This document shows positions 11,947-20,829 of a DNA stretch of 64,000 nt, in pieces. This stretch comes from a virus. The notes beneath the pieces were generated by a model that saw only the letters and a program-made list of their open reading frames with translations, was not told the DNA's origin and did not search any database. Location: IMG/VR virus record IMGVR_UViG_3300047564_002270, positions 64,001 through 128,000 of that record. One strand, written 5' to 3'. A program made the translations under genes and the position numbers. Within the stretch, counting starts at the first letter, position 1; each line of letters opens with the position of its first letter.

Positions 11947-12849
11947 ATGGCAGGAGCTGTAGCAAAGCATTATAAGGTTTCGGAAATTAAACAGAAATTG
12001 ATGCGTCCGGCGCAGACTTCTGTTTATATGGTAGAGGTATTAACAAACCAAGAAGTAAATTCTTTTGTTTCTAGTAGGGGAGTCAGTGAAGCAAAACATA
12101 AGGAAATGATTAATCTTGCTTGCTGTGAAGCAAGTCTTCCTGGATCTAGTTTGGCAACGCACGAAGTCAATAATGACTATCACGGATCAACTGAAAAAAT
12201 GGTGTATCGTAGAATTTACGATGACACTATTGATTTAACTTTTTATGTTGATCACGAATATGCAGTTATTAAATATTTTCAGGGATGGATGAATTTTATT
12301 GTTGGTGAAGGGGAATACTTTGACTCAGAGCAGTATAAAAATCCTGCAACTTTTTACAGGATGCAATACCCAAAAAGATACAAGAGTGACATTCACCTTA
12401 TTAAATTTGAAAAAGATGTAAGTAAAAATTCTCCCAGACCCACACTTCAATATCAATTTATACAAGCATTTCCGATCAATATTGTTTCTACTCCAATATC
12501 TTATGATGCAAGTGATTTATTAAAAATTACGGTTTCTTTCTCTTATGTTAGATATGTAATGACTAATAGATTTAGTCCTTCTTATCAAAATGCAACTAGA
12601 AAACCTCCCATCATAGGAGATCCTGCAGATCAAGCTACAATAAATGGAAATGCTTTAAGTCCTTCATATCCATTTACTCCAGGAGTTCCTGAGTTATATA
12701 CTGCAGCAACAGCATTGGACGGAACTCAATATTTTAATGACAGTTTAAGAAATTTACCAAATACATTTTCTTATAACTCTTTTGCACCAAATGCTTCTAA
12801 CCCACCAGTTGGTGATTTTGGAACTCCTGGAACCTCTGGATTTGCGTAA
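11947..12849 (+). CDS. Tail tube-like / tube initiator protein (gp19/gp54 family)
   Basis: CCEASLPG, DLTFYVD, AFP.NI and ITVSFSY motifs. Confidence 0.75.
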   Translation: MAGAVAKHYKVSEIKQKLMRPAQTSVYMVEVLTNQEVNSFVSSRGVSEAKHKEMINLACCEASLPGSSLATHEVNNDYHGSTEKMVYRRIYDDTIDLTFYVDHEYAVIKYFQGWMNFIVGEGEYFDSEQYKNPATFYRMQYPKRYKSDIHLIKFEKDVSKNSPRPTLQYQFIQAFPINIVSTPISYDASDLLKITVSFSYVRYVMTNRFSPSYQNATRKPPIIGDPADQATINGNALSPSYPFTPGVPELYTAATALDGTQYFNDSLRNLPNTFSYNSFAPNASNPPVGDFGTPGTSGFA

Positions 12850-12880: not shown

Positions 12881-13600
12881 ATGCCTTTACCAAAGATTTC
12901 TACTCCGACTTATGAGTTGGAATTGCCATCAACTGGAGAATCAATTAGATATAGACCGTTCTTAGTAAGAGAAGAAAAACTTCTTGTTCTTGCCCTTGAG
13001 AGTGAAAACACTAAAGATATTACGAATGCAATTAAAACAGTTATTAAAAATTGCATTCAATCAAAAGGAATTAAAGTTGAAATTCTTCCTACATTTGATA
13101 TTGAATATTTGTTCCTTAACATTCGTGGAAAATCAGTTGGCGAAGAAATAGAAGTTAATTTGATTTGCCCAGATGATAGTGAAACAACAGTATTAACTAA
13201 GATTGCTGTTGATGATATTCAGGTTAAAAAGAATGAAGAGCATACTAATCAAATTAAGATTGATGATAATTTGATGATGGAAATGAAGTATCCATCATTA
13301 GATCAGTTCATTAAGAGTAATTTTGATTTTTCTTCTGGAAACAATATGGATCAATCTTTTGATTTGATTGTTTCTTGTATTGCTAAGATTTATAACGCAG
13401 AAGAAGTTTGGTCTTCATCAGATGTGACTAAGAAAGAACTTGTCGATTTCTTAGATCAAATGAACTCATCACAATTTAAACAAATTGAAAAGTTCTTTGA
13501 GACTATGCCTAAACTTTCCCACGAAGTTAAGATTACAAATCCAAATACAAATGTTGAAAGCACTGTTGTTCTTGAGGGGCTATCGAGTTTTTTCGCGTAG
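12881..13600 (+). CDS. gp26: Baseplate hub assembly protein (gp26-like); probable tail assembly chaperone
   Basis: MPLPKI.TPTYEL.LPS, YRPFLVREEK, IRGKSVGE and FFETMP motifs; ends in SSFFA. Confidence 0.85.
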   Translation: MPLPKISTPTYELELPSTGESIRYRPFLVREEKLLVLALESENTKDITNAIKTVIKNCIQSKGIKVEILPTFDIEYLFLNIRGKSVGEEIEVNLICPDDSETTVLTKIAVDDIQVKKNEEHTNQIKIDDNLMMEMKYPSLDQFIKSNFDFSSGNNMDQSFDLIVSCIAKIYNAEEVWSSSDVTKKELVDFLDQMNSSQFKQIEKFFETMPKLSHEVKITNPNTNVESTVVLEGLSSFFA

Positions 13601-13621
13601 CAATGGTCCATATGGACCTTG
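13574..13621 (+). promoter_or_regulatory. Candidate programmed -1 ribosomal frameshift cassette
   Basis: GAGGGG (13574-79), slippery T-TTT-TTC (13588-94), 6-nt spacer and hairpin (13601-21). The -1 frame is open into the next ORF. Confidence 0.65.
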
Positions 13622-13776
13622 AGAATTATTATAAATTAAATTTTGCTTTGATGCAGTATCATAAATACTCATTGACCGAAATTGAAAACTTGATGCCTTG
13701 GGAACGTGATGTTTATGTTATGCTTCTAGAGCAGCACTTAGAAGAAGAAAGACAAAAACAACAGCAAAAACAGTAA
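13603..13776 (+). CDS. gp51: gp51-like baseplate hub assembly catalyst, 57 aa (not in the ORF track); probable frameshift extension of the upstream gene
   Basis: LENYYKLNFALMQYHKYSLTEIENLMPWERDVY. Confidence 0.85.
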   Translation: MVHMDLENYYKLNFALMQYHKYSLTEIENLMPWERDVYVMLLEQHLEEERQKQQQKQ

Positions 13777-16569
13777 ATGGCAGTCGAGGATCCTACTAAA
13801 AAACAAATAGAAGAAGTAGATCCAGAAGTTGCCAAAATTCTTGGGTTGGAGGATAACTTTGACTTAGAATATGATGAGTATATGCAATTGTTGAGAGAAA
13901 CAATTGTTAAAAGTTCCTTCGATGAAAAGTCAAAGTTATCTGAAGATGATCTAGCAAAACTTGCTAACGAAAGAAAGAGAATAAGAGATCTTAAAGGATC
14001 TAAATTTACTGCAGCAAAAAAAGGAATAAATGTAGACTCTTTTTTTAATAAGAAACCTCAAGGTCAAGGGACAAATCAAAAACCCGTCACAGATCCTGCA
14101 AAGTTATTATCAGGATCTGGAGGTGCTTTAGCAAATTACCAACCACCAGAACCTGAACAAGAACAAGAAAAACAGGTAGATAATAATTCAAAAAAGATTG
14201 GGGAAATAGAAAAGTTTTTAAATGGATCTCTACTTGATATTGTAAAAGAAATTAGAGGATTGACCGAGAGTATCCTTTCTATATTACAAAAACAGTCTTC
14301 TGCTGATAAAAAGGGATCGGAATTATCAAGAAGAGAAAGAGAGAAGACTGGAAAGGAAGGTAAGGAGAAAGATTTAGAAGGCAAGAAGGAAGAGAAAAAG
14401 GGTTTAGGACTAATCAATAAAATTCTTAAACCCTTTACGAGTATCTTTGATACGATTAAGAATTTTATAATGATGGTTCTTCTTGGGTCTTTGGTTAATT
14501 GGTTATTTACTGTCTTACAAAATCCAATGACATTACTCAAACCTATACAGGGTTTGATTGATGGTATAACTGGTTTCTTTAATACAGTTATACAATTTAT
14601 TGATAAGATGGTTGTTCAACCGGTGAGAAATTTTATTGATGCAATTAATTCTGCATTGAATGGTTTTATTGGTCTTTTGAATGGTGCATTAAAAATGCTT
14701 CCGGGTTCCCCTCAAATAGGGTCTGCGAATATTCCTAACATTCCACAAGCTCCAGAACTTCAAGCACCCAATATTACTGGTGAACCAAAGAACCCAGAAC
14801 CTAAACCAACTGCAGGTCCACCAATTAATCTTAAATTTACTGGTGGAGAAGTTAGACCTCCAAAAGTAGTAAAAAAAGAAACTGGTGGATCTATTCCAGG
14901 AAATGCAGCAGATAGGAAAAAATTATCTTTTAATGATACAGTTTCAAGAGAGGGTGGAAATGTATCTTCTAAAACTACTTCATTCAATGTTTCTGGTCTA
15001 GGTCCCGATAAACATCTAACTGCTCTTTCAACTGGAGAATATGTATTAAAGAAAGGTGCTGCTGATTGGTTAGGAGGTCCAGTATATCTTGATAATATCA
15101 ATAAGATGTTTGGTGGAACAACTGAAAGAAAAGTTGCTAATCTTGGAGATATTAAAATTGAAGCGAAGTCGACTGGAGGTCAGATTGGTGGATCTAGTGG
15201 TTCCAATGGTGCTAGAGGATCTAGTGGTTCCAGTGGTTCCAATGGTGCTAGAGGATCTAGTGGTGCTAGTAGTTCTGGAGGTTCTTCAAATGGATTTAAG
15301 ATTGGTGATAGAATTTTTAGCCCGACAGAATATAGTAAGAATGTAATATCAACTCGTTATATTACAGTTGGTAAAAATCCTCCAAAATCATATGTTCTTG
15401 GATATGTTAGAGATAGTGCAAGTAGTGGAAAATATACTATTAAAATGGTCAATAAACTAGTGTCTTCTGCTGGATTGGGAAAGTTAGTTGGAAAAAGCGA
15501 CGAATTGACCGGAGTTCTTCCATCAAGTCCAGAAGGACAATCTATTTTAAAATCTGCAAACGTTGCTGATTATTTTAGAACTGTAGTTGGCACTGCAAAA
15601 ATGTTTAAACTCGAATTGAAATATGATAAAGATGCGGATATTCAATATTGGTATAATCAAGCATATCAAACACATTATAATGATTGGAAGGATAAATTAG
15701 GAGTATCTGATGAAAAGGCTAAGCAGATGGCATCAGTTGCTGCTGCTGAATTTGCAATATCTAAATCTAAAGGATCTAAAGGGTCTTGGTTGCCTGGATC
15801 ACCACAATCCAAAGCTCCTGAGTCTTTAAGATATCAAGGTGTTGAAACTGATAATCTATCGGGACCTGCATCTGCAGACTCTCCGGCAGCAGATGCTCCT
15901 AAAGACGATAAAACATTAAAATTTGATGATGCCGCTTTAACCTCAGGAACAATCTATGGGGACCCTGCAAAAGACTCTTATGCAAGTCCATCTACTCCAT
16001 TAATTCCTACTGGACCTGGATCTAGAAATCCTCAAAGTGAAACTGGAGAACCTAAGAAATCAACTCAATCTCAACCATCAACACCATTAATTCCTTCTTC
16101 ACCACCATCATCTTCATCATTATCTGAAGACCAACTTAATAAAATGTCGGTGGATCAATTGAGTAAAATGTTAGATCCATCAAAAGTTGGAGCATCTAAT
16201 CCAGCAGTTTTTGAAGCTGCTACAAGAGCTAGAGAAGAGGGTAAAGCACAAGGTCTTACTGGGGAAGTATTAGAAAAGAAAGTATTAATAGCATCTATTT
16301 TAGCAAAGAAAGGTGGAGCATCATCTGCTGTTTCTTCACCTACAACTTCTCCTTCTATAGCACCTGGGAAACCACCTAATATACCAGGTGTTCCCGAAAG
16401 TCAACCAAGTGTATCTATGTTGCCACTACCATCTGTTGGGAAAGGAGGAAACCCACAATCAGGAATGACAAAAACTGGATCAACACCTGTTGTTTATTTT
16501 AATTCTTATGACAGTAGTGAGGCTGCTATAATTACAACCGCAGCTCTTTATAACATCTGGGGAATGTAG
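13777..16569 (+). CDS. Tape-measure-like virion protein 1
   Basis: Coiled-coil and amphipathic N-half; G.GPD...ALSTGEYVL motif typical of tape-measure C-termini; low-complexity linkers. Confidence 0.65.
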   Translation: MAVEDPTKKQIEEVDPEVAKILGLEDNFDLEYDEYMQLLRETIVKSSFDEKSKLSEDDLAKLANERKRIRDLKGSKFTAAKKGINVDSFFNKKPQGQGTNQKPVTDPAKLLSGSGGALANYQPPEPEQEQEKQVDNNSKKIGEIEKFLNGSLLDIVKEIRGLTESILSILQKQSSADKKGSELSRREREKTGKEGKEKDLEGKKEEKKGLGLINKILKPFTSIFDTIKNFIMMVLLGSLVNWLFTVLQNPMTLLKPIQGLIDGITGFFNTVIQFIDKMVVQPVRNFIDAINSALNGFIGLLNGALKMLPGSPQIGSANIPNIPQAPELQAPNITGEPKNPEPKPTAGPPINLKFTGGEVRPPKVVKKETGGSIPGNAADRKKLSFNDTVSREGGNVSSKTTSFNVSGLGPDKHLTALSTGEYVLKKGAADWLGGPVYLDNINKMFGGTTERKVANLGDIKIEAKSTGGQIGGSSGSNGARGSSGSSGSNGARGSSGASSSGGSSNGFKIGDRIFSPTEYSKNVISTRYITVGKNPPKSYVLGYVRDSASSGKYTIKMVNKLVSSAGLGKLVGKSDELTGVLPSSPEGQSILKSANVADYFRTVVGTAKMFKLELKYDKDADIQYWYNQAYQTHYNDWKDKLGVSDEKAKQMASVAAAEFAISKSKGSKGSWLPGSPQSKAPESLRYQGVETDNLSGPASADSPAADAPKDDKTLKFDDAALTSGTIYGDPAKDSYASPSTPLIPTGPGSRNPQSETGEPKKSTQSQPSTPLIPSSPPSSSSLSEDQLNKMSVDQLSKMLDPSKVGASNPAVFEAATRAREEGKAQGLTGEVLEKKVLIASILAKKGGASSAVSSPTTSPSIAPGKPPNIPGVPESQPSVSMLPLPSVGKGGNPQSGMTKTGSTPVVYFNSYDSSEAAIITTAALYNIWGM
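15190..15270 (+). repeat. Tandem coding repeat (GSSGSNGAR)
   Basis: AGTGGTTCCAATGGTGCTAGAGGATCTAGTGGT occurs twice. Confidence 0.8.
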
Positions 16570-16581
16570 GGGGATAGATAG

Positions 16582-19500
16582 ATGCTTCCTTTATTACTTG
16601 GCGCAGGAAGAATGTTAGCAGCAGGAGCAGCAAGAGGTGCTGCTACAGGGGCAGCAAGAGGAGCAATTGTTGGAGGAATTAAAGAGACTGTAAAGAAAGG
16701 TATTGTTGATGGGGCAAAGAAAAAAGCGACCTCATTTATTAAGAAAAAAACTACCAAAGCTAATAAGAAAATATCTCCAGATAAATTAATACCAAAAGGA
16801 AGTAAGGGTAGTGGCACTGGAGCATTAGTTCGTCGTAAGTCATCTGCAATTGTTCGTCGTCCAACTTCTGCTCTTGTTAAACCCGTCGATAAAGAAACTG
16901 GGGTAGAAGAAAAGCAACAAAAAGAAGAACAAAAACCCTTTGATGGTGGAGATCTAATCAAGGAATTAATTGCAATCAAAGAAACTTTGATTAAAATTAA
17001 AGGAGTTTTTGGATCTAATTTAGCAAATACTTTAAGAAATCAAAGAAGTCAAAGAATTCTTAGAAGTAAAGAAAAGGCATCTAAGAGAGAGGCAGAATTA
17101 GAGAAAAAAGGTCCTGAGAAAAAAGGTAAGATATTAGAGGGTCCTAAAAAGAAACTAAGTTTCTTTGATATGATTTGGAATTATATTAGTAATGTTTTAT
17201 TAGGAAGTCTTGCAAATTTCTTATTTAATTATGTTCCTCAGATTATTAAAATGTTTGGGGAAATTGCTAAAGGTCTTGAAAATCCTTTACAGCAATTAAG
17301 ATTAGGAATAATTGCTCTCACAACTTTATTCCCGAAACAAATTAAGTTTCTTGCTAAACTGACAGGGATGATCATTGGTCCCCCTGCAAGATTGATAGGA
17401 AAACTTTTATTAAAAGCAGGAGGAGTCGCTAAGAACTTATTTAAGAAAGCAGGAACTCTTGTTTTTAATTTAATTAAGGGCCCTCTTACAAATTTAGTAA
17501 AGAGAATTGGTGGAGAAGCATTAGAGCAAGGTATAAAATCAACTGCTAAAGGTGCTGTTAAATTTGCAGGAAAAGCAGCAGCAAAAGCAGGTACTGCTAT
17601 AGGAACTAGTGCTAGATTTTTAAAACGATTTAGAGCATTTTCTAAAATGTTTAAAAGAGTTCCAGTTATTGGGGCTTTGATTGGCATTGGTATTGATATG
17701 GCAATGGGAGAGCCATTGGATCGTGCTATTATAGGTGCTGCCGGTGCTAGTTTAGGTTCAGCAATTGGTGGATTAATAGGACAAGGTGTTATTCCAATTC
17801 CTGGTCTTGGTGCTCTTGTTGGTGCTGGTATTGGTGGTGCTATTGGTGATTGGGGGGCAAAAGAAATTTATAAAAATTTGTCAGGAAGAACTGGTCCAGT
17901 TGATAAGGCAAACCCAATTCCCGTTGAACGTCGTTATGCTGCAGGTAGAGTTGGTGGTGGTTCTAGATCTATGCCAAGTAGGACTACCAATATACAAGCA
18001 AAACCTGCAGTAGCAACAACTAAAGTTTCTGCCGATGTTGAAAGTAAGGCAAAGGAAGATATTCTTAAGGATGAGAAAAGTTTAAACAGATTTAAATCTC
18101 TCTCATCAACTTTTGCAGGAACTCCATTTATTGGTCAGTTATTGAAGATGGGTATTGATATTGGAATGGGAGCACAAGTTCAAAAGACACAGACTGATGC
18201 TGCTGCTCAAGACCTTGGATTTACTATTGGTAAAGCATTAGAAGATGATGAGTTTTCAGTTCCTGGTTTAAACAAAAGAATTATTGGACCTTTATCTAAG
18301 AATTTAACTGAGTGGGCAAAGAAAAGAATATTTTATGAAGTAAAATCAAGAGAAGGATTGTTCCCATCAATCGAAAAATCAAAAGACCAGGCAGGTAAAG
18401 CAGGTGAGGGTGGACAGCAACCAGCAACTGATGGTGGAGGAGTTAATATACAGGGAGGAGATGCTGATTTTTGGACACTGGCAGCAGTAGTTTCTAGAGA
18501 GGATGGTGATCCACAAGGACAGGCAGACGTTGCGCAGTCAATTTATAATAGACTTGCATCCGGTGCTTATGGTGGAAAAACTATAAAAGATTTAATTACC
18601 AGAACCTGGCAGTATGAACCAACTTGGAGATATCCAGGTGGTGCAACTAAAGGAAGAGGTAATCCTAATCCAGAATGGTTTAATATAAAAGATTTAGCTA
18701 GCGCAGCTGCTGCGACAGGAACTTCAGAATTCCACGTTTCTCAAGCTGCTAAAGCTATTCTAGATGCAAACCTTCAAAAAAATTCAAAAGAATTTGTTCA
18801 AGGAAGAACTGATTTTACTGGATACGCTAAATCTGCTAGAAGAGGTCAAATCCAAAGAAAGAGTGGTGACAATTATTTTGGATGGGACTTTAATTATTCT
18901 GGTAATAAAATAGCATTAGTCCCCAATTTCAATGCATCTGCATCATCTTCTTCTGGAGGTGGTGGAGGAGGAAAAAATGAACCTAACGTAGCTCAAAAAG
19001 ACAAAAAAATATTCTTACATTGGACTGCTGGCGGATATAATGATAATCCTAGTGGATTTGGATATAATGCTGTTTTTGATGGTAGTGGAAAGAAACAACA
19101 AATTCGCCCATATAATCAGGCAGGAGAGCATACTTGGCGTAGAAATGCAAATTCTGTAGGACTAGCAGTTGCTGCTATGGGTGGAAAAACTGATCCTTGG
19201 AGTGTTCCTCCTAAAGCAAATCAAATTTCAGCAATGACTGCTGAAGCTGCTAAAATTGCTAAATCTTGGGGTTGGAAAGCATCTGATGTTAATTCCAAAA
19301 ATATTATGACTCACGCTGAGATTGCAAAGATAGATGGTTATGGACCTGGATCTGGTGATAAACAAATGAGGTGGGATTTCCTTCAAACGGAAAAAGGAAA
19401 ACCTGATTGGTCTGGAGGAAATGAACTTCGTAGTAAGATTAAATCTTCTATGGGAGGTGGATATGGTTTTAATCATCAGCATATTGTTCCATCTTTTGCT

Positions 19501-20829
19501 ATGGGTGGAAATCACGTAGTAACTTCATCAATGGGGATGAGAAATTTTGCTCTATCTCCCGGTATGCATATGGGAGTTGACATTGCGGGATCCACTGGAG
19601 AACCTTTGCAAGCATTTACTGATGGAACTGTTGAAGCAACCTCTCCACCATCACCTTCTGCTGGTTATGGAAATTGGGTAAGTTGGATTGATAGCAATGG
19701 TATTGGGCATCTCTATGGGCATATGAACAAGCCTCCTTTTGTAAGAGCGGGTCAAAAGGTAAAGAAAGGAACTGTTCTTGGAGAACTTGGAAGCACTGGA
19801 AAATCTTCAGGACCTCACTTACATTGGGAAGCAGCAACAAATCCACAAGATACTGGAAGACCAAAGAGTTCAGTTCTTTCAAGATTTAATCCACTATCAA
19901 GATATAACAAAGAAGCTCCTTTTGGTGGAACTATTAAATCCGATGGTTCTGTTCCAGAAAGTTCAGGAACTTCATCCAACCACGATGCAGCACCTGGTTC
20001 AACTTCCCCAGGAACTTCGAGTTCAAATCAATTATCTTTCTCTGATAGTGCTCTGACTTCAGGAACAATCTATGGAGATCCTGCTAAGGGTGGTGGATCT
20101 GGAACTAGAGGTAAAATCGTAGAATACTTAACTGGAGATCCTAATAGTCCTAACATTGCAGGAAAAGCATATGATAGGGCAGGACACGGAACACCTGGCA
20201 ATTATCACGATCACGTTGCCTTTAATGATCGTCAGACTGCAATAGATGCTTATAAATTCTTTAAATCAAAAGGTGTAGATGTCACTGAATTTAAAGGATT
20301 TGGTAGTGTTGGTGGCCACGCAATAAATTCTTATCATTATTCCGGTTTAGCATTTGATATTCCAGGATATCAATGGGGTGGAAGTGGTCCTGTTGGTGAT
20401 AAAGATTATGCTGGGTCAAGAAAAGTTAGAGCACTTCTAAATGAATTTTTTGGAGGATCAATACCTGTTGGAAGTGGACCTCCTCCTTCAGATATTGCTC
20501 AAGGATCTCAACCAAATGCAGATGGATCGAATAATGGAGGATTACAGTTCTCTGAATCTGATTTAACTTCGGGAACAATCTATGGAGATCCATCAAAAGA
20601 ATTCTATAAAAAGGAGATGGCAAATATTGATCAACTCAAGCAAAAACCATCTTATGATCAGAGTGGGAAACAAAGTATAGTTATGTTGCCACCTATGCAG
20701 GCACAATCTGCACCAGGACAATCTGGTGGTGGTAGGGGTATTTCACCTATTTCTGGTGGGTTAAATAATAAAGAAGTTTCCGCGCTTTCTGTCCGTCAAA
20801 TTCTAGCATCAGCACTTTATAAAATTTAA
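16582..20829 (+). CDS. Tape-measure-like virion protein 2 with multiple peptidoglycan hydrolase domains
   Basis: Ala/Gly amphipathic N-half; SleB-like (LAAVVSRE...VAQSIYNR), amidase_2 (FLHWTAG...THAE), M23 (HMGVD...YGHM...GPHLHWE) and a further Zn-peptidase-like domain. Confidence 0.85.
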   Translation: MLPLLLGAGRMLAAGAARGAATGAARGAIVGGIKETVKKGIVDGAKKKATSFIKKKTTKANKKISPDKLIPKGSKGSGTGALVRRKSSAIVRRPTSALVKPVDKETGVEEKQQKEEQKPFDGGDLIKELIAIKETLIKIKGVFGSNLANTLRNQRSQRILRSKEKASKREAELEKKGPEKKGKILEGPKKKLSFFDMIWNYISNVLLGSLANFLFNYVPQIIKMFGEIAKGLENPLQQLRLGIIALTTLFPKQIKFLAKLTGMIIGPPARLIGKLLLKAGGVAKNLFKKAGTLVFNLIKGPLTNLVKRIGGEALEQGIKSTAKGAVKFAGKAAAKAGTAIGTSARFLKRFRAFSKMFKRVPVIGALIGIGIDMAMGEPLDRAIIGAAGASLGSAIGGLIGQGVIPIPGLGALVGAGIGGAIGDWGAKEIYKNLSGRTGPVDKANPIPVERRYAAGRVGGGSRSMPSRTTNIQAKPAVATTKVSADVESKAKEDILKDEKSLNRFKSLSSTFAGTPFIGQLLKMGIDIGMGAQVQKTQTDAAAQDLGFTIGKALEDDEFSVPGLNKRIIGPLSKNLTEWAKKRIFYEVKSREGLFPSIEKSKDQAGKAGEGGQQPATDGGGVNIQGGDADFWTLAAVVSREDGDPQGQADVAQSIYNRLASGAYGGKTIKDLITRTWQYEPTWRYPGGATKGRGNPNPEWFNIKDLASAAAATGTSEFHVSQAAKAILDANLQKNSKEFVQGRTDFTGYAKSARRGQIQRKSGDNYFGWDFNYSGNKIALVPNFNASASSSSGGGGGGKNEPNVAQKDKKIFLHWTAGGYNDNPSGFGYNAVFDGSGKKQQIRPYNQAGEHTWRRNANSVGLAVAAMGGKTDPWSVPPKANQISAMTAEAAKIAKSWGWKASDVNSKNIMTHAEIAKIDGYGPGSGDKQMRWDFLQTEKGKPDWSGGNELRSKIKSSMGGGYGFNHQHIVPSFAMGGNHVVTSSMGMRNFALSPGMHMGVDIAGSTGEPLQAFTDGTVEATSPPSPSAGYGNWVSWIDSNGIGHLYGHMNKPPFVRAGQKVKKGTVLGELGSTGKSSGPHLHWEAATNPQDTGRPKSSVLSRFNPLSRYNKEAPFGGTIKSDGSVPESSGTSSNHDAAPGSTSPGTSSSNQLSFSDSALTSGTIYGDPAKGGGSGTRGKIVEYLTGDPNSPNIAGKAYDRAGHGTPGNYHDHVAFNDRQTAIDAYKFFKSKGVDVTEFKGFGSVGGHAINSYHYSGLAFDIPGYQWGGSGPVGDKDYAGSRKVRALLNEFFGGSIPVGSGPPPSDIAQGSQPNADGSNNGGLQFSESDLTSGTIYGDPSKEFYKKEMANIDQLKQKPSYDQSGKQSIVMLPPMQAQSAPGQSGGGRGISPISGGLNNKEVSALSVRQILASALYKI

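Follow-up and report, generated by a model that had tools for sequence, protein, structure and literature searches.

Putative ribosomal -1 frameshifting joins the gp26-like and "gp51" reading frames of an uncultured cyanophage into one candidate tail assembly chaperone gene

The slippery heptamer of the phage lambda tail assembly chaperones gpG and gpGT is G_GGA_AAG, while that of the E and E+E' pair of phage P2 is T_TTT_TTG. In the Escherichia coli dnaX signal, a Shine-Dalgarno-like element precedes the heptamer and a stem-loop follows it. A conserved -1 frameshift in the tail assembly chaperones of long-tailed phages was reportedly described by Xu, Hendrix and Duda in 2004. According to the review of Atkins et al. 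(2016, PMC5009743), long-tailed phages "except T4" conserve G-T frameshifting. In T4, gp26 and gp51 are described as chaperones of hub assembly, and gp51 does not form part of the particle (PMC3004832). Vladimirov, Gautam and Davidson (2022, doi 10.1016/j.virol.2021.11.003) reportedly identified T4 gp26/gp51 as a tail assembly chaperone pair. Papers that cite this work state that the TAC-N genes of T4-like phages are known to carry poly-T slippery sequences (PMC12846349), and that some T4-like phages have a short gene and a long fusion gene instead of frameshifting (PMC10274946). The core idea of the present work is therefore already published at family level, and the novelty that a preliminary description of the locus had implied for a frameshifted gp26/gp51 has to be given up in view of this prior art.

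The locus analyzed here lies in a stretch of 64,000 nucleotides (the window), which is positions 64,001 to 128,000 of the IMG/VR record IMGVR_UViG_3300047564_002270. Its nearest isolates are the cyanophages P-TIM68, SynMITS9220M01 and S-SM2, with about 75% nucleotide identity. We propose, with a probability of roughly 0.8, that the gp26-like gene and the small "gp51" open reading frame (ORF) of the window are one recoded tail (baseplate-hub/tape-measure) assembly chaperone gene, whose two parts are joined by ribosomal -1 frameshifting. The locus belongs to the same family as the T4 pair of 2022, PF12322, and follows the same logic of a short and a long form; it differs in its source, an uncultured cyanophage whose pair continues to be annotated as two genes. 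Both the poly-T slip signals and the alternative of a short gene plus a long fusion gene, as the citing papers present them, are reproduced in our comparison. The features of the locus are the following:

11947-12849, plus strand: upstream gene with a tail-tube-family fold (gp54/gp48-like tube initiator); PF23849 Phage_TTP_2, E-value 1e-17; phrog_45 "tail tube", E-value 1e-32
12881-13600, plus strand: gp26-like short form (TAC-N), 239 aa, 0 frame
13574-13579, plus strand: Shine-Dalgarno-like GAGGGG, candidate stimulator, within the conserved L-E-G-L codons and 8 nt 5' of the slip site
13588-13594, plus strand: slippery heptamer T_TTT_TTC, in 0-frame phase X_XXY_YYZ
13594-13776, plus strand: -1-frame extension, 60 codons and a stop, which appended to residues 1-238 gives the predicted long form (TAC-NC)
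13598-13600, plus strand: 0-frame stop TAG, one codon past the heptamer
13601-13621, plus strand: stem-loop CAA-U-GGUCC-AUAU-GGACC-UUG, with 3 bp, a bulged U, 5 bp and the loop AUAU, 6 nt after the heptamer
13603-13776, plus strand: 57-aa ORF, commonly labelled "gp51 / baseplate hub assembly catalyst", in the -1 frame relative to the gp26-like ORF
13777-16569, plus strand: next gene, candidate tape measure protein, 930 aa, with weak tape-measure PHROG matches (E-values 2e-4 and 6e-4)

The three elements that the preliminary description had placed around the end of the gp26-like gene are all present. The final codons of the gene are AGT TTT TTC GCG TAG, which agrees base by base with the in-frame heptamer described, GAGGGG precedes the heptamer by 8 nt, and the hairpin CAA-T-GGTCC-ATAT-GGACC-TTG starts 6 nt after it. 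After the slip the -1 frame reads F-F-R-V-A-M-V-H-M-D-L and runs directly into the 57-aa ORF, also as had been reported. The predicted products have 239 aa on normal termination and 238+60 = 298 aa after a -1 slip, in line with the 239 and roughly 298 aa given before. TTTTTTC is found 40 times in this AT-rich window against 42 copies expected, that is, at chance level, and therefore the significance of the heptamer can come only from its conservation among homologues. The minus strand carries 30 of the 40 copies and the plus strand 10, and the slip site is the only plus-strand copy between 11548 and 38359; this scarcity may reflect avoidance of sense-orientation slippery runs among the plus-strand genes located there.

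Like lambda gpG/gpGT, the locus has its slip site within the last few codons of the short ORF, followed by a -1 extension; a long candidate tape-measure gene comes directly after it, short and long forms are shared (here predicted), and the N-domain fold is like that of the solved chaperones of the class. The locus differs in the heptamer, here U_UUU_UUC, in a short form that is about 100 residues longer and has extra domains, and in the lack of detectable sequence similarity. Phage P2 E/E+E' and the present pair are both myovirus tail chaperones (here a candidate), with a T-rich heptamer shortly before the short ORF ends as the site of the -1 shift (here proposed); however, their sequences are unrelated and P2 is a small temperate myovirus. 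The tau/gamma signal of E. coli dnaX shows the same three-part layout of upstream Shine-Dalgarno-like element, heptamer and downstream stem-loop, but there the frameshift shortens the product, while here it would extend it, and the Shine-Dalgarno-like element of the present locus is backed by a modest codon bias only.

Homologous junctions were obtained from 256 usable loci, which gave 223 unique junctions, the majority of them from IMG/VR. The set contains 15 diverse isolates: cyanophages, a Methylophilales phage and phages of Ochrobactrum, Stenotrophomonas, Cronobacter, Acidovorax, Aeromonas, Vibrio and Agrobacterium. Amino acid identity to the gp26 of the window ranges between 23 and 98%, and the GC content of the gp26 genes between 26 and 59%. 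Single-protein locus searches with the gp26 of KVP40, Aeromonas 65 and YB07 retrieved two to five loci each, and an 18-sequence gp26 alignment was too divergent to be used as search seed.

Conservation of the heptamer across homologues, one of the checks proposed in the preliminary description, is nearly complete. The heptamer T_TTT_TTC/A/T is found in phase in 221 of the 223 unique junctions: 199 show TTTTTTC, 18 show TTTTTTA and four show TTTTTTT. In 218 of these 221 junctions the 0-frame stop lies one codon 3' of the heptamer. The run has exactly six T in about 90% of the junctions and never expands, and the codon that precedes it always ends in T regardless of the residue encoded (AGT, GAT, TCT, AAT, GCT or ACT). 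For the second Phe, 200 of 222 sites use TTC, compared with 31% of the Phe codons elsewhere in the same genes. Furthermore, the 18 TTTTTTA junctions encode the 0-frame dipeptide F-L instead of F-F and retain the slipperiness. Directly after the heptamer the 0 frame encodes various residues (A, G, V, E, S or D), and the overlapping residue of the -1 frame is Arg in 201 of 222 junctions, encoded by both CGN and AGR codons. On these sequence grounds, there is selection on the nucleotides and on the -1 frame at the junction.

Two junctions do not show the heptamer. In one of them, L105, the run has five T, and it is read as a homopolymer error because the otherwise identical L104 and YB07 carry six. 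A comparison of L105:1938-1990 with L104 and L088 thus shows T5 versus T6 exactly at the slip site of two Stenotrophomonas phage genomes that do not differ otherwise. The other, the sole true exception among the 223, is Vibrio phage K483 (L095:2040-2120), which reads TCA CTT TTC AAG TAA and whose extension ORF begins at a TAATG stop-start overlap; this lineage looks like a case of translational coupling in place of frameshifting. In-frame fused metagenome ORFs (P0003 and others) were considered as natural fusions and rejected as probable homopolymer errors, since they are singletons and some of them carry further frame errors. The singletons P0003, P0006, P0007 and P0012 read through the slip site as ...SFFR....

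Homopolymer errors at this very site, such as the T5 of L105, and the ORFs that read through it raise the question of whether the true gene is one uninterrupted ORF with seven T, which sequencing or assembly has broken. This explanation is extremely improbable, because T6 and the same stop recur in 221 independent junctions, with many finished isolate genomes among them.

From the heptamer onward, 221 of 221 junctions have an open -1 frame of 57 codons or more, so that the -1 phase, whose conservation had likewise been proposed as a check, is universal. A conserved core, ..NYYK.NF..MQHHKYSL.E.ENM.PWERE.Y.., begins exactly at codon 13 past the heptamer in 203 junctions, while the position of the first ATG wanders between codons 3 and 35. 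An ATG lies upstream of the core in 148 of these 203 junctions, and 44 of the 203 have no ATG, GTG or TTG ahead of it. In the window, ATG 13603 is not conserved within its clade, where it is often CTG, TTA or CTC, and ATG 13612 is conserved only within that clade. With wandering ATGs and 44 junctions that lack a start before a fixed core, independent initiation cannot be the general route to this domain.

These data bear on the reading that the databases adopt, in which the pair are two separate genes: the small ORF would be translated alone, from ATG 13603 or 13612 or by termination-reinitiation after the TAG, no fusion would be made, and the T-run would be a U-rich enhancer or encode an F-F motif. 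The two in-frame ATGs would permit some independent or re-initiated translation of the small ORF in the window, and both the ATG ahead of the core in most junctions and the TAATG overlap of Vibrio phage K483 speak for it. Nevertheless, we hold two separate genes to be very improbable, since the start positions are not conserved or are missing, the peptide is conserved from the slip site on, with its Arg kept through two codon families, and F-F changes to F-L while the run stays. The preliminary description had also called on an ATG of the small ORF without ribosome binding site; a Shine-Dalgarno sequence is indeed missing before its ATGs, but as evidence for a frameshift this is weak, because many genes of the window lack one.

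The stem-loop of the window has a predicted energy of -9.7 kcal/mol (z = -2.2 against shuffles) and is within the most stable 1.8% of the windows of its locus. Across loci, the 36 nt that start 4 nt past the heptamer show a mean of -8.5 kcal/mol, compared with -3.2 kcal/mol in control windows of the same locus; their median rank is 2.7%, and 57% of the loci have them in their top 5%. Among the 147 loci at or below -6 kcal/mol, 121 show a spacer of 3-7 nt, while about one third of all loci show weak downstream structure only. The stems vary by clade: GGUCC/GGACC in that of the window, GGCUCUC/GAGAGCC, GACUAUC/GAUAGUC and GCCCUC/GAGGGC in others, and a 10-12-bp stem in the P-SSM2 group, and stems of different clades lie in different registers. 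The conservation of the hairpin, which was the third check proposed, is therefore that of a downstream stem-loop as a feature, with clade-specific stems. In the clade of the window, 31 double-sided changes were counted against 16.9 ± 2.9 in shuffles (0/500), and slid controls were lower; since the stem lies inside -1 coding sequence, this covariation is supportive and not conclusive, and protein constraint may account for part of the hairpin conservation. Upstream of the slip site, the conserved L-E-G-L codons show GAG in 51% of cases versus 28% elsewhere in gp26, and GGG in 23% versus 8%; the enrichment of the Shine-Dalgarno-like element is modest and not universal.

The same fused 298-aa protein would be obtained by transcriptional slippage, with the RNA polymerase adding an extra U at the T6 in some transcripts, and because the protein is identical, comparative data cannot separate the two mechanisms. 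Efficient transcriptional slippage in bacterial systems usually requires longer runs. A homopolymer run is found at the site in all 221 junctions; against this mechanism, the run is held at six T in most junctions, without expansion, it is kept in X_XXY_YYZ phase, and a stem-loop 3-7 nt downstream is a classical ribosomal stimulator. The words "mechanism other than translational frameshifting" in the title of Vladimirov et al. may refer to the two genes of T4 only or may also cast doubt on ribosomal slippage. On balance, transcriptional slippage appears unlikely, and a slip of the ribosome is the preferred reading.

The 239-aa protein matches PF12322 T4_baseplate over its full length and above the gathering score (E-value 5.4e-76, 255 bits, profile positions 2-219 of 219) and phrog_150 with an E-value of 2e-79. 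PF12322 is single-copy in the 107-kb genome fragment of the uncultured virus that contains the window. The 57-aa ORF matches phrog_634 "hub assembly catalyst" only at positions 60-116, and it also matches the last 42 positions of phrog_150 (240-281), a first hint that both parts exist fused. No match was found for it in the Pfam version used, which predates PF28602; this family is listed for the extension in the precomputed Pfam column of proteins P0001-P0033. NCBIfam has no model for any of the four proteins analyzed.

T4 gp51 (249 aa) shows PF12322 over residues 1-201 (E-value 4e-52), and its match to phrog_150 runs to the end, whereas T4 gp26 (208 aa) contains the PF12322 domain only. In the alignment, every gp26 ends in L.G[LI]..FF.-stop, T4 gp51 continues from exactly that F-F point into the extension, and the -1 extension of the window aligns with this C-terminal extension. 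A T4 gp51-type stand-alone gene has the PF12322 domain and the extension in one ORF; the 57-aa ORF of the window covers the extension only, so the label "gp51" denotes here a fragment. T4 genes 26 and 51 are divergently transcribed and, judging by these alignments, encode the short and the long form as separate genes. In RB43 (L267:1601-2894), a long form of 247 aa is followed on the same strand by a gp26-like short form of 185 aa, ending ..SLRGLEAFLKVVG, a tandem arrangement unlike the divergent genes of T4. Full-length gp51 genes are present in 1380 phage records, which include Tevenvirinae and Acinetobacter, Aeromonas, RB43 and KP27 types, and the single-gene type in 691 phage records. One Acinetobacter phage record labels gp51 as "tape measure protein assembly chaperone".

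None of six T4-type phages with a separate gp51 shows the heptamer at the end of gp26. The gp26 of T4, VR25 and a Klebsiella phage ends in GAR TTC TTT (GAG TTC TTT in T4), AB-Navy71 shows TTT GTC, PspYZU05 shows A_TTT_TTT, and Aes012 has no motif. T4-type gp26 genes thus retain F-F and not the run, which indicates that the heptamer is not kept elsewhere merely for the F-F motif. This, together with T4 gp51, in which the extension works fused to the gp26 domain, further argues against two separate genes.

To model the long form, the metagenomic read-through form P0003 was used, aligned with 48 diverse short forms and extensions. The fused model has a pLDDT of 94 and a pTM of 0.88, and its extension is helical. 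In a structural search of 48,161 chains, 3fgx, YqbN (3klu) and the HK97 tail assembly chaperone (2ob9) rank first, with Z-scores of 6.9-7.1 over 85-86 residues, in model residues 1-92. The N-domain folded alone (pLDDT 85-94) gives 2ob9_B (Z 7.6), 3fgx_B (Z 7.6) and 3klu_A (Z 7.3) over 85-86 residues, followed by 5ir0 (Z 5.3) and the next unrelated chain (Z 4.2). Foldseek places the same chains first for the N-domain, with probability 0.91, TM 0.43-0.55 and non-significant E-values of 0.15-1.3, and found no match for the full-length fused model; it took VIA-align, and the N-domain folded separately, to bring out the chaperone match. A sequence-profile search of solved structures gave no match, and residues 93-239 of the short form have no counterpart in the matched chaperones. 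The modeled N-domain therefore shows a moderate but specific resemblance to solved tail assembly chaperones, and this fold, along with T4 gp51 as a long form encoded by a separate gene, supports the analogy with lambda G/GT that had been drawn for the locus.

The gene order given in the preliminary description, tube-like gene, chaperone pair and tape-measure-like gene, stands in its first part. A tube-family gene lies upstream, and its syntenic counterpart is annotated as gp54 or tail tube in Aeromonas phage 65, KVP40 and OLIVR6. The label "tape-measure-like" is weaker, with marginal PHROG matches only: the 930-aa protein has no Pfam match and no similarity to T4 gp29 by BLASTP. Two genes downstream of the pair, the plus-strand gene 16582-20829 encodes a 1415-aa protein with a Peptidase_M23 match (E-value 3e-23) and weaker Amidase_2, Hydrolase_2 and glycine-zipper matches, and its predicted product is a tail or hub protein with multiple lytic domains. 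In P-HM2 and S-SCSM1, the chaperone pair is directly followed by a peptidase or lysozyme gene.

For the expression of the locus we infer that most ribosomes would terminate at TAG 13598 and release the 239-aa short form, and that a minority would slip back one base, with two tRNA-Phe on UUU-UUC within U_UUU_UUC (13588-13594). Probably the stem-loop that begins 6 nt past the heptamer, and perhaps also the GAGGGG ahead of it, would aid the slip. Slipped ribosomes would read 60 further codons in the -1 frame and produce the 298-aa long form with its helical C-terminal domain. By analogy with lambda G/GT and with the genetics of T4 gp26/gp51, the N-terminal part common to both forms would attach to the tape measure or hub protein, the extension would bring in a further tail component, and neither form would remain in the virion.

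Taken jointly, these observations would fit a single-gene frameshift that is ancestral in the T4 superfamily (Kyanoviridae, KVP40-like, Aeromonas-65-like and Stenotrophomonas/Acidovorax/Agrobacterium myophages), with T4 genes 26 and 51 as a derived duplication that made the slip site dispensable. Selection would act on slipperiness itself, as in the change from F-F to F-L at TTTTTTA, and the stimulatory stem would have been re-invented in each clade within the coding sequence. We give this joint reading an even chance.

None of the 15 isolate records of the single-gene type marks ribosomal slippage, and they give the extension as a gene of its own ("gp51 / hub assembly catalyst"), cut it to 26-31 aa, or lack it. 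In P-HM2, Melnitz, LPCS28, VmeM-32, ACP17 and Aeromonas 65, it is unannotated or a 26-47-aa ORF that starts from an internal Met. As a consequence, a fragment passes for a gene in the output of gene callers and of PHROG/Pfam-based pipelines for hundreds of marine phage genomes. Furthermore, the slip site attracts homopolymer errors, through which metagenomes come to contain spurious ORFs, either fused or broken.

The signal fills the gap that the words "except T4" had left in an otherwise general feature of long-tailed phages, the tail-chaperone frameshift, a step that the 2022 paper appears to have taken first. If that paper omits cyanophages or such details, the reading of an ancestral frameshift would be a modest extension of it. 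The remaining value of the locus and its relatives lies in annotation, the TTTTTTA variants, the clade-specific stems, the K483 exception and the binding partners, and their heptamers and stems offer a natural variant series with which -1 frameshifting can be studied in non-model hosts, cyanobacteria among them.
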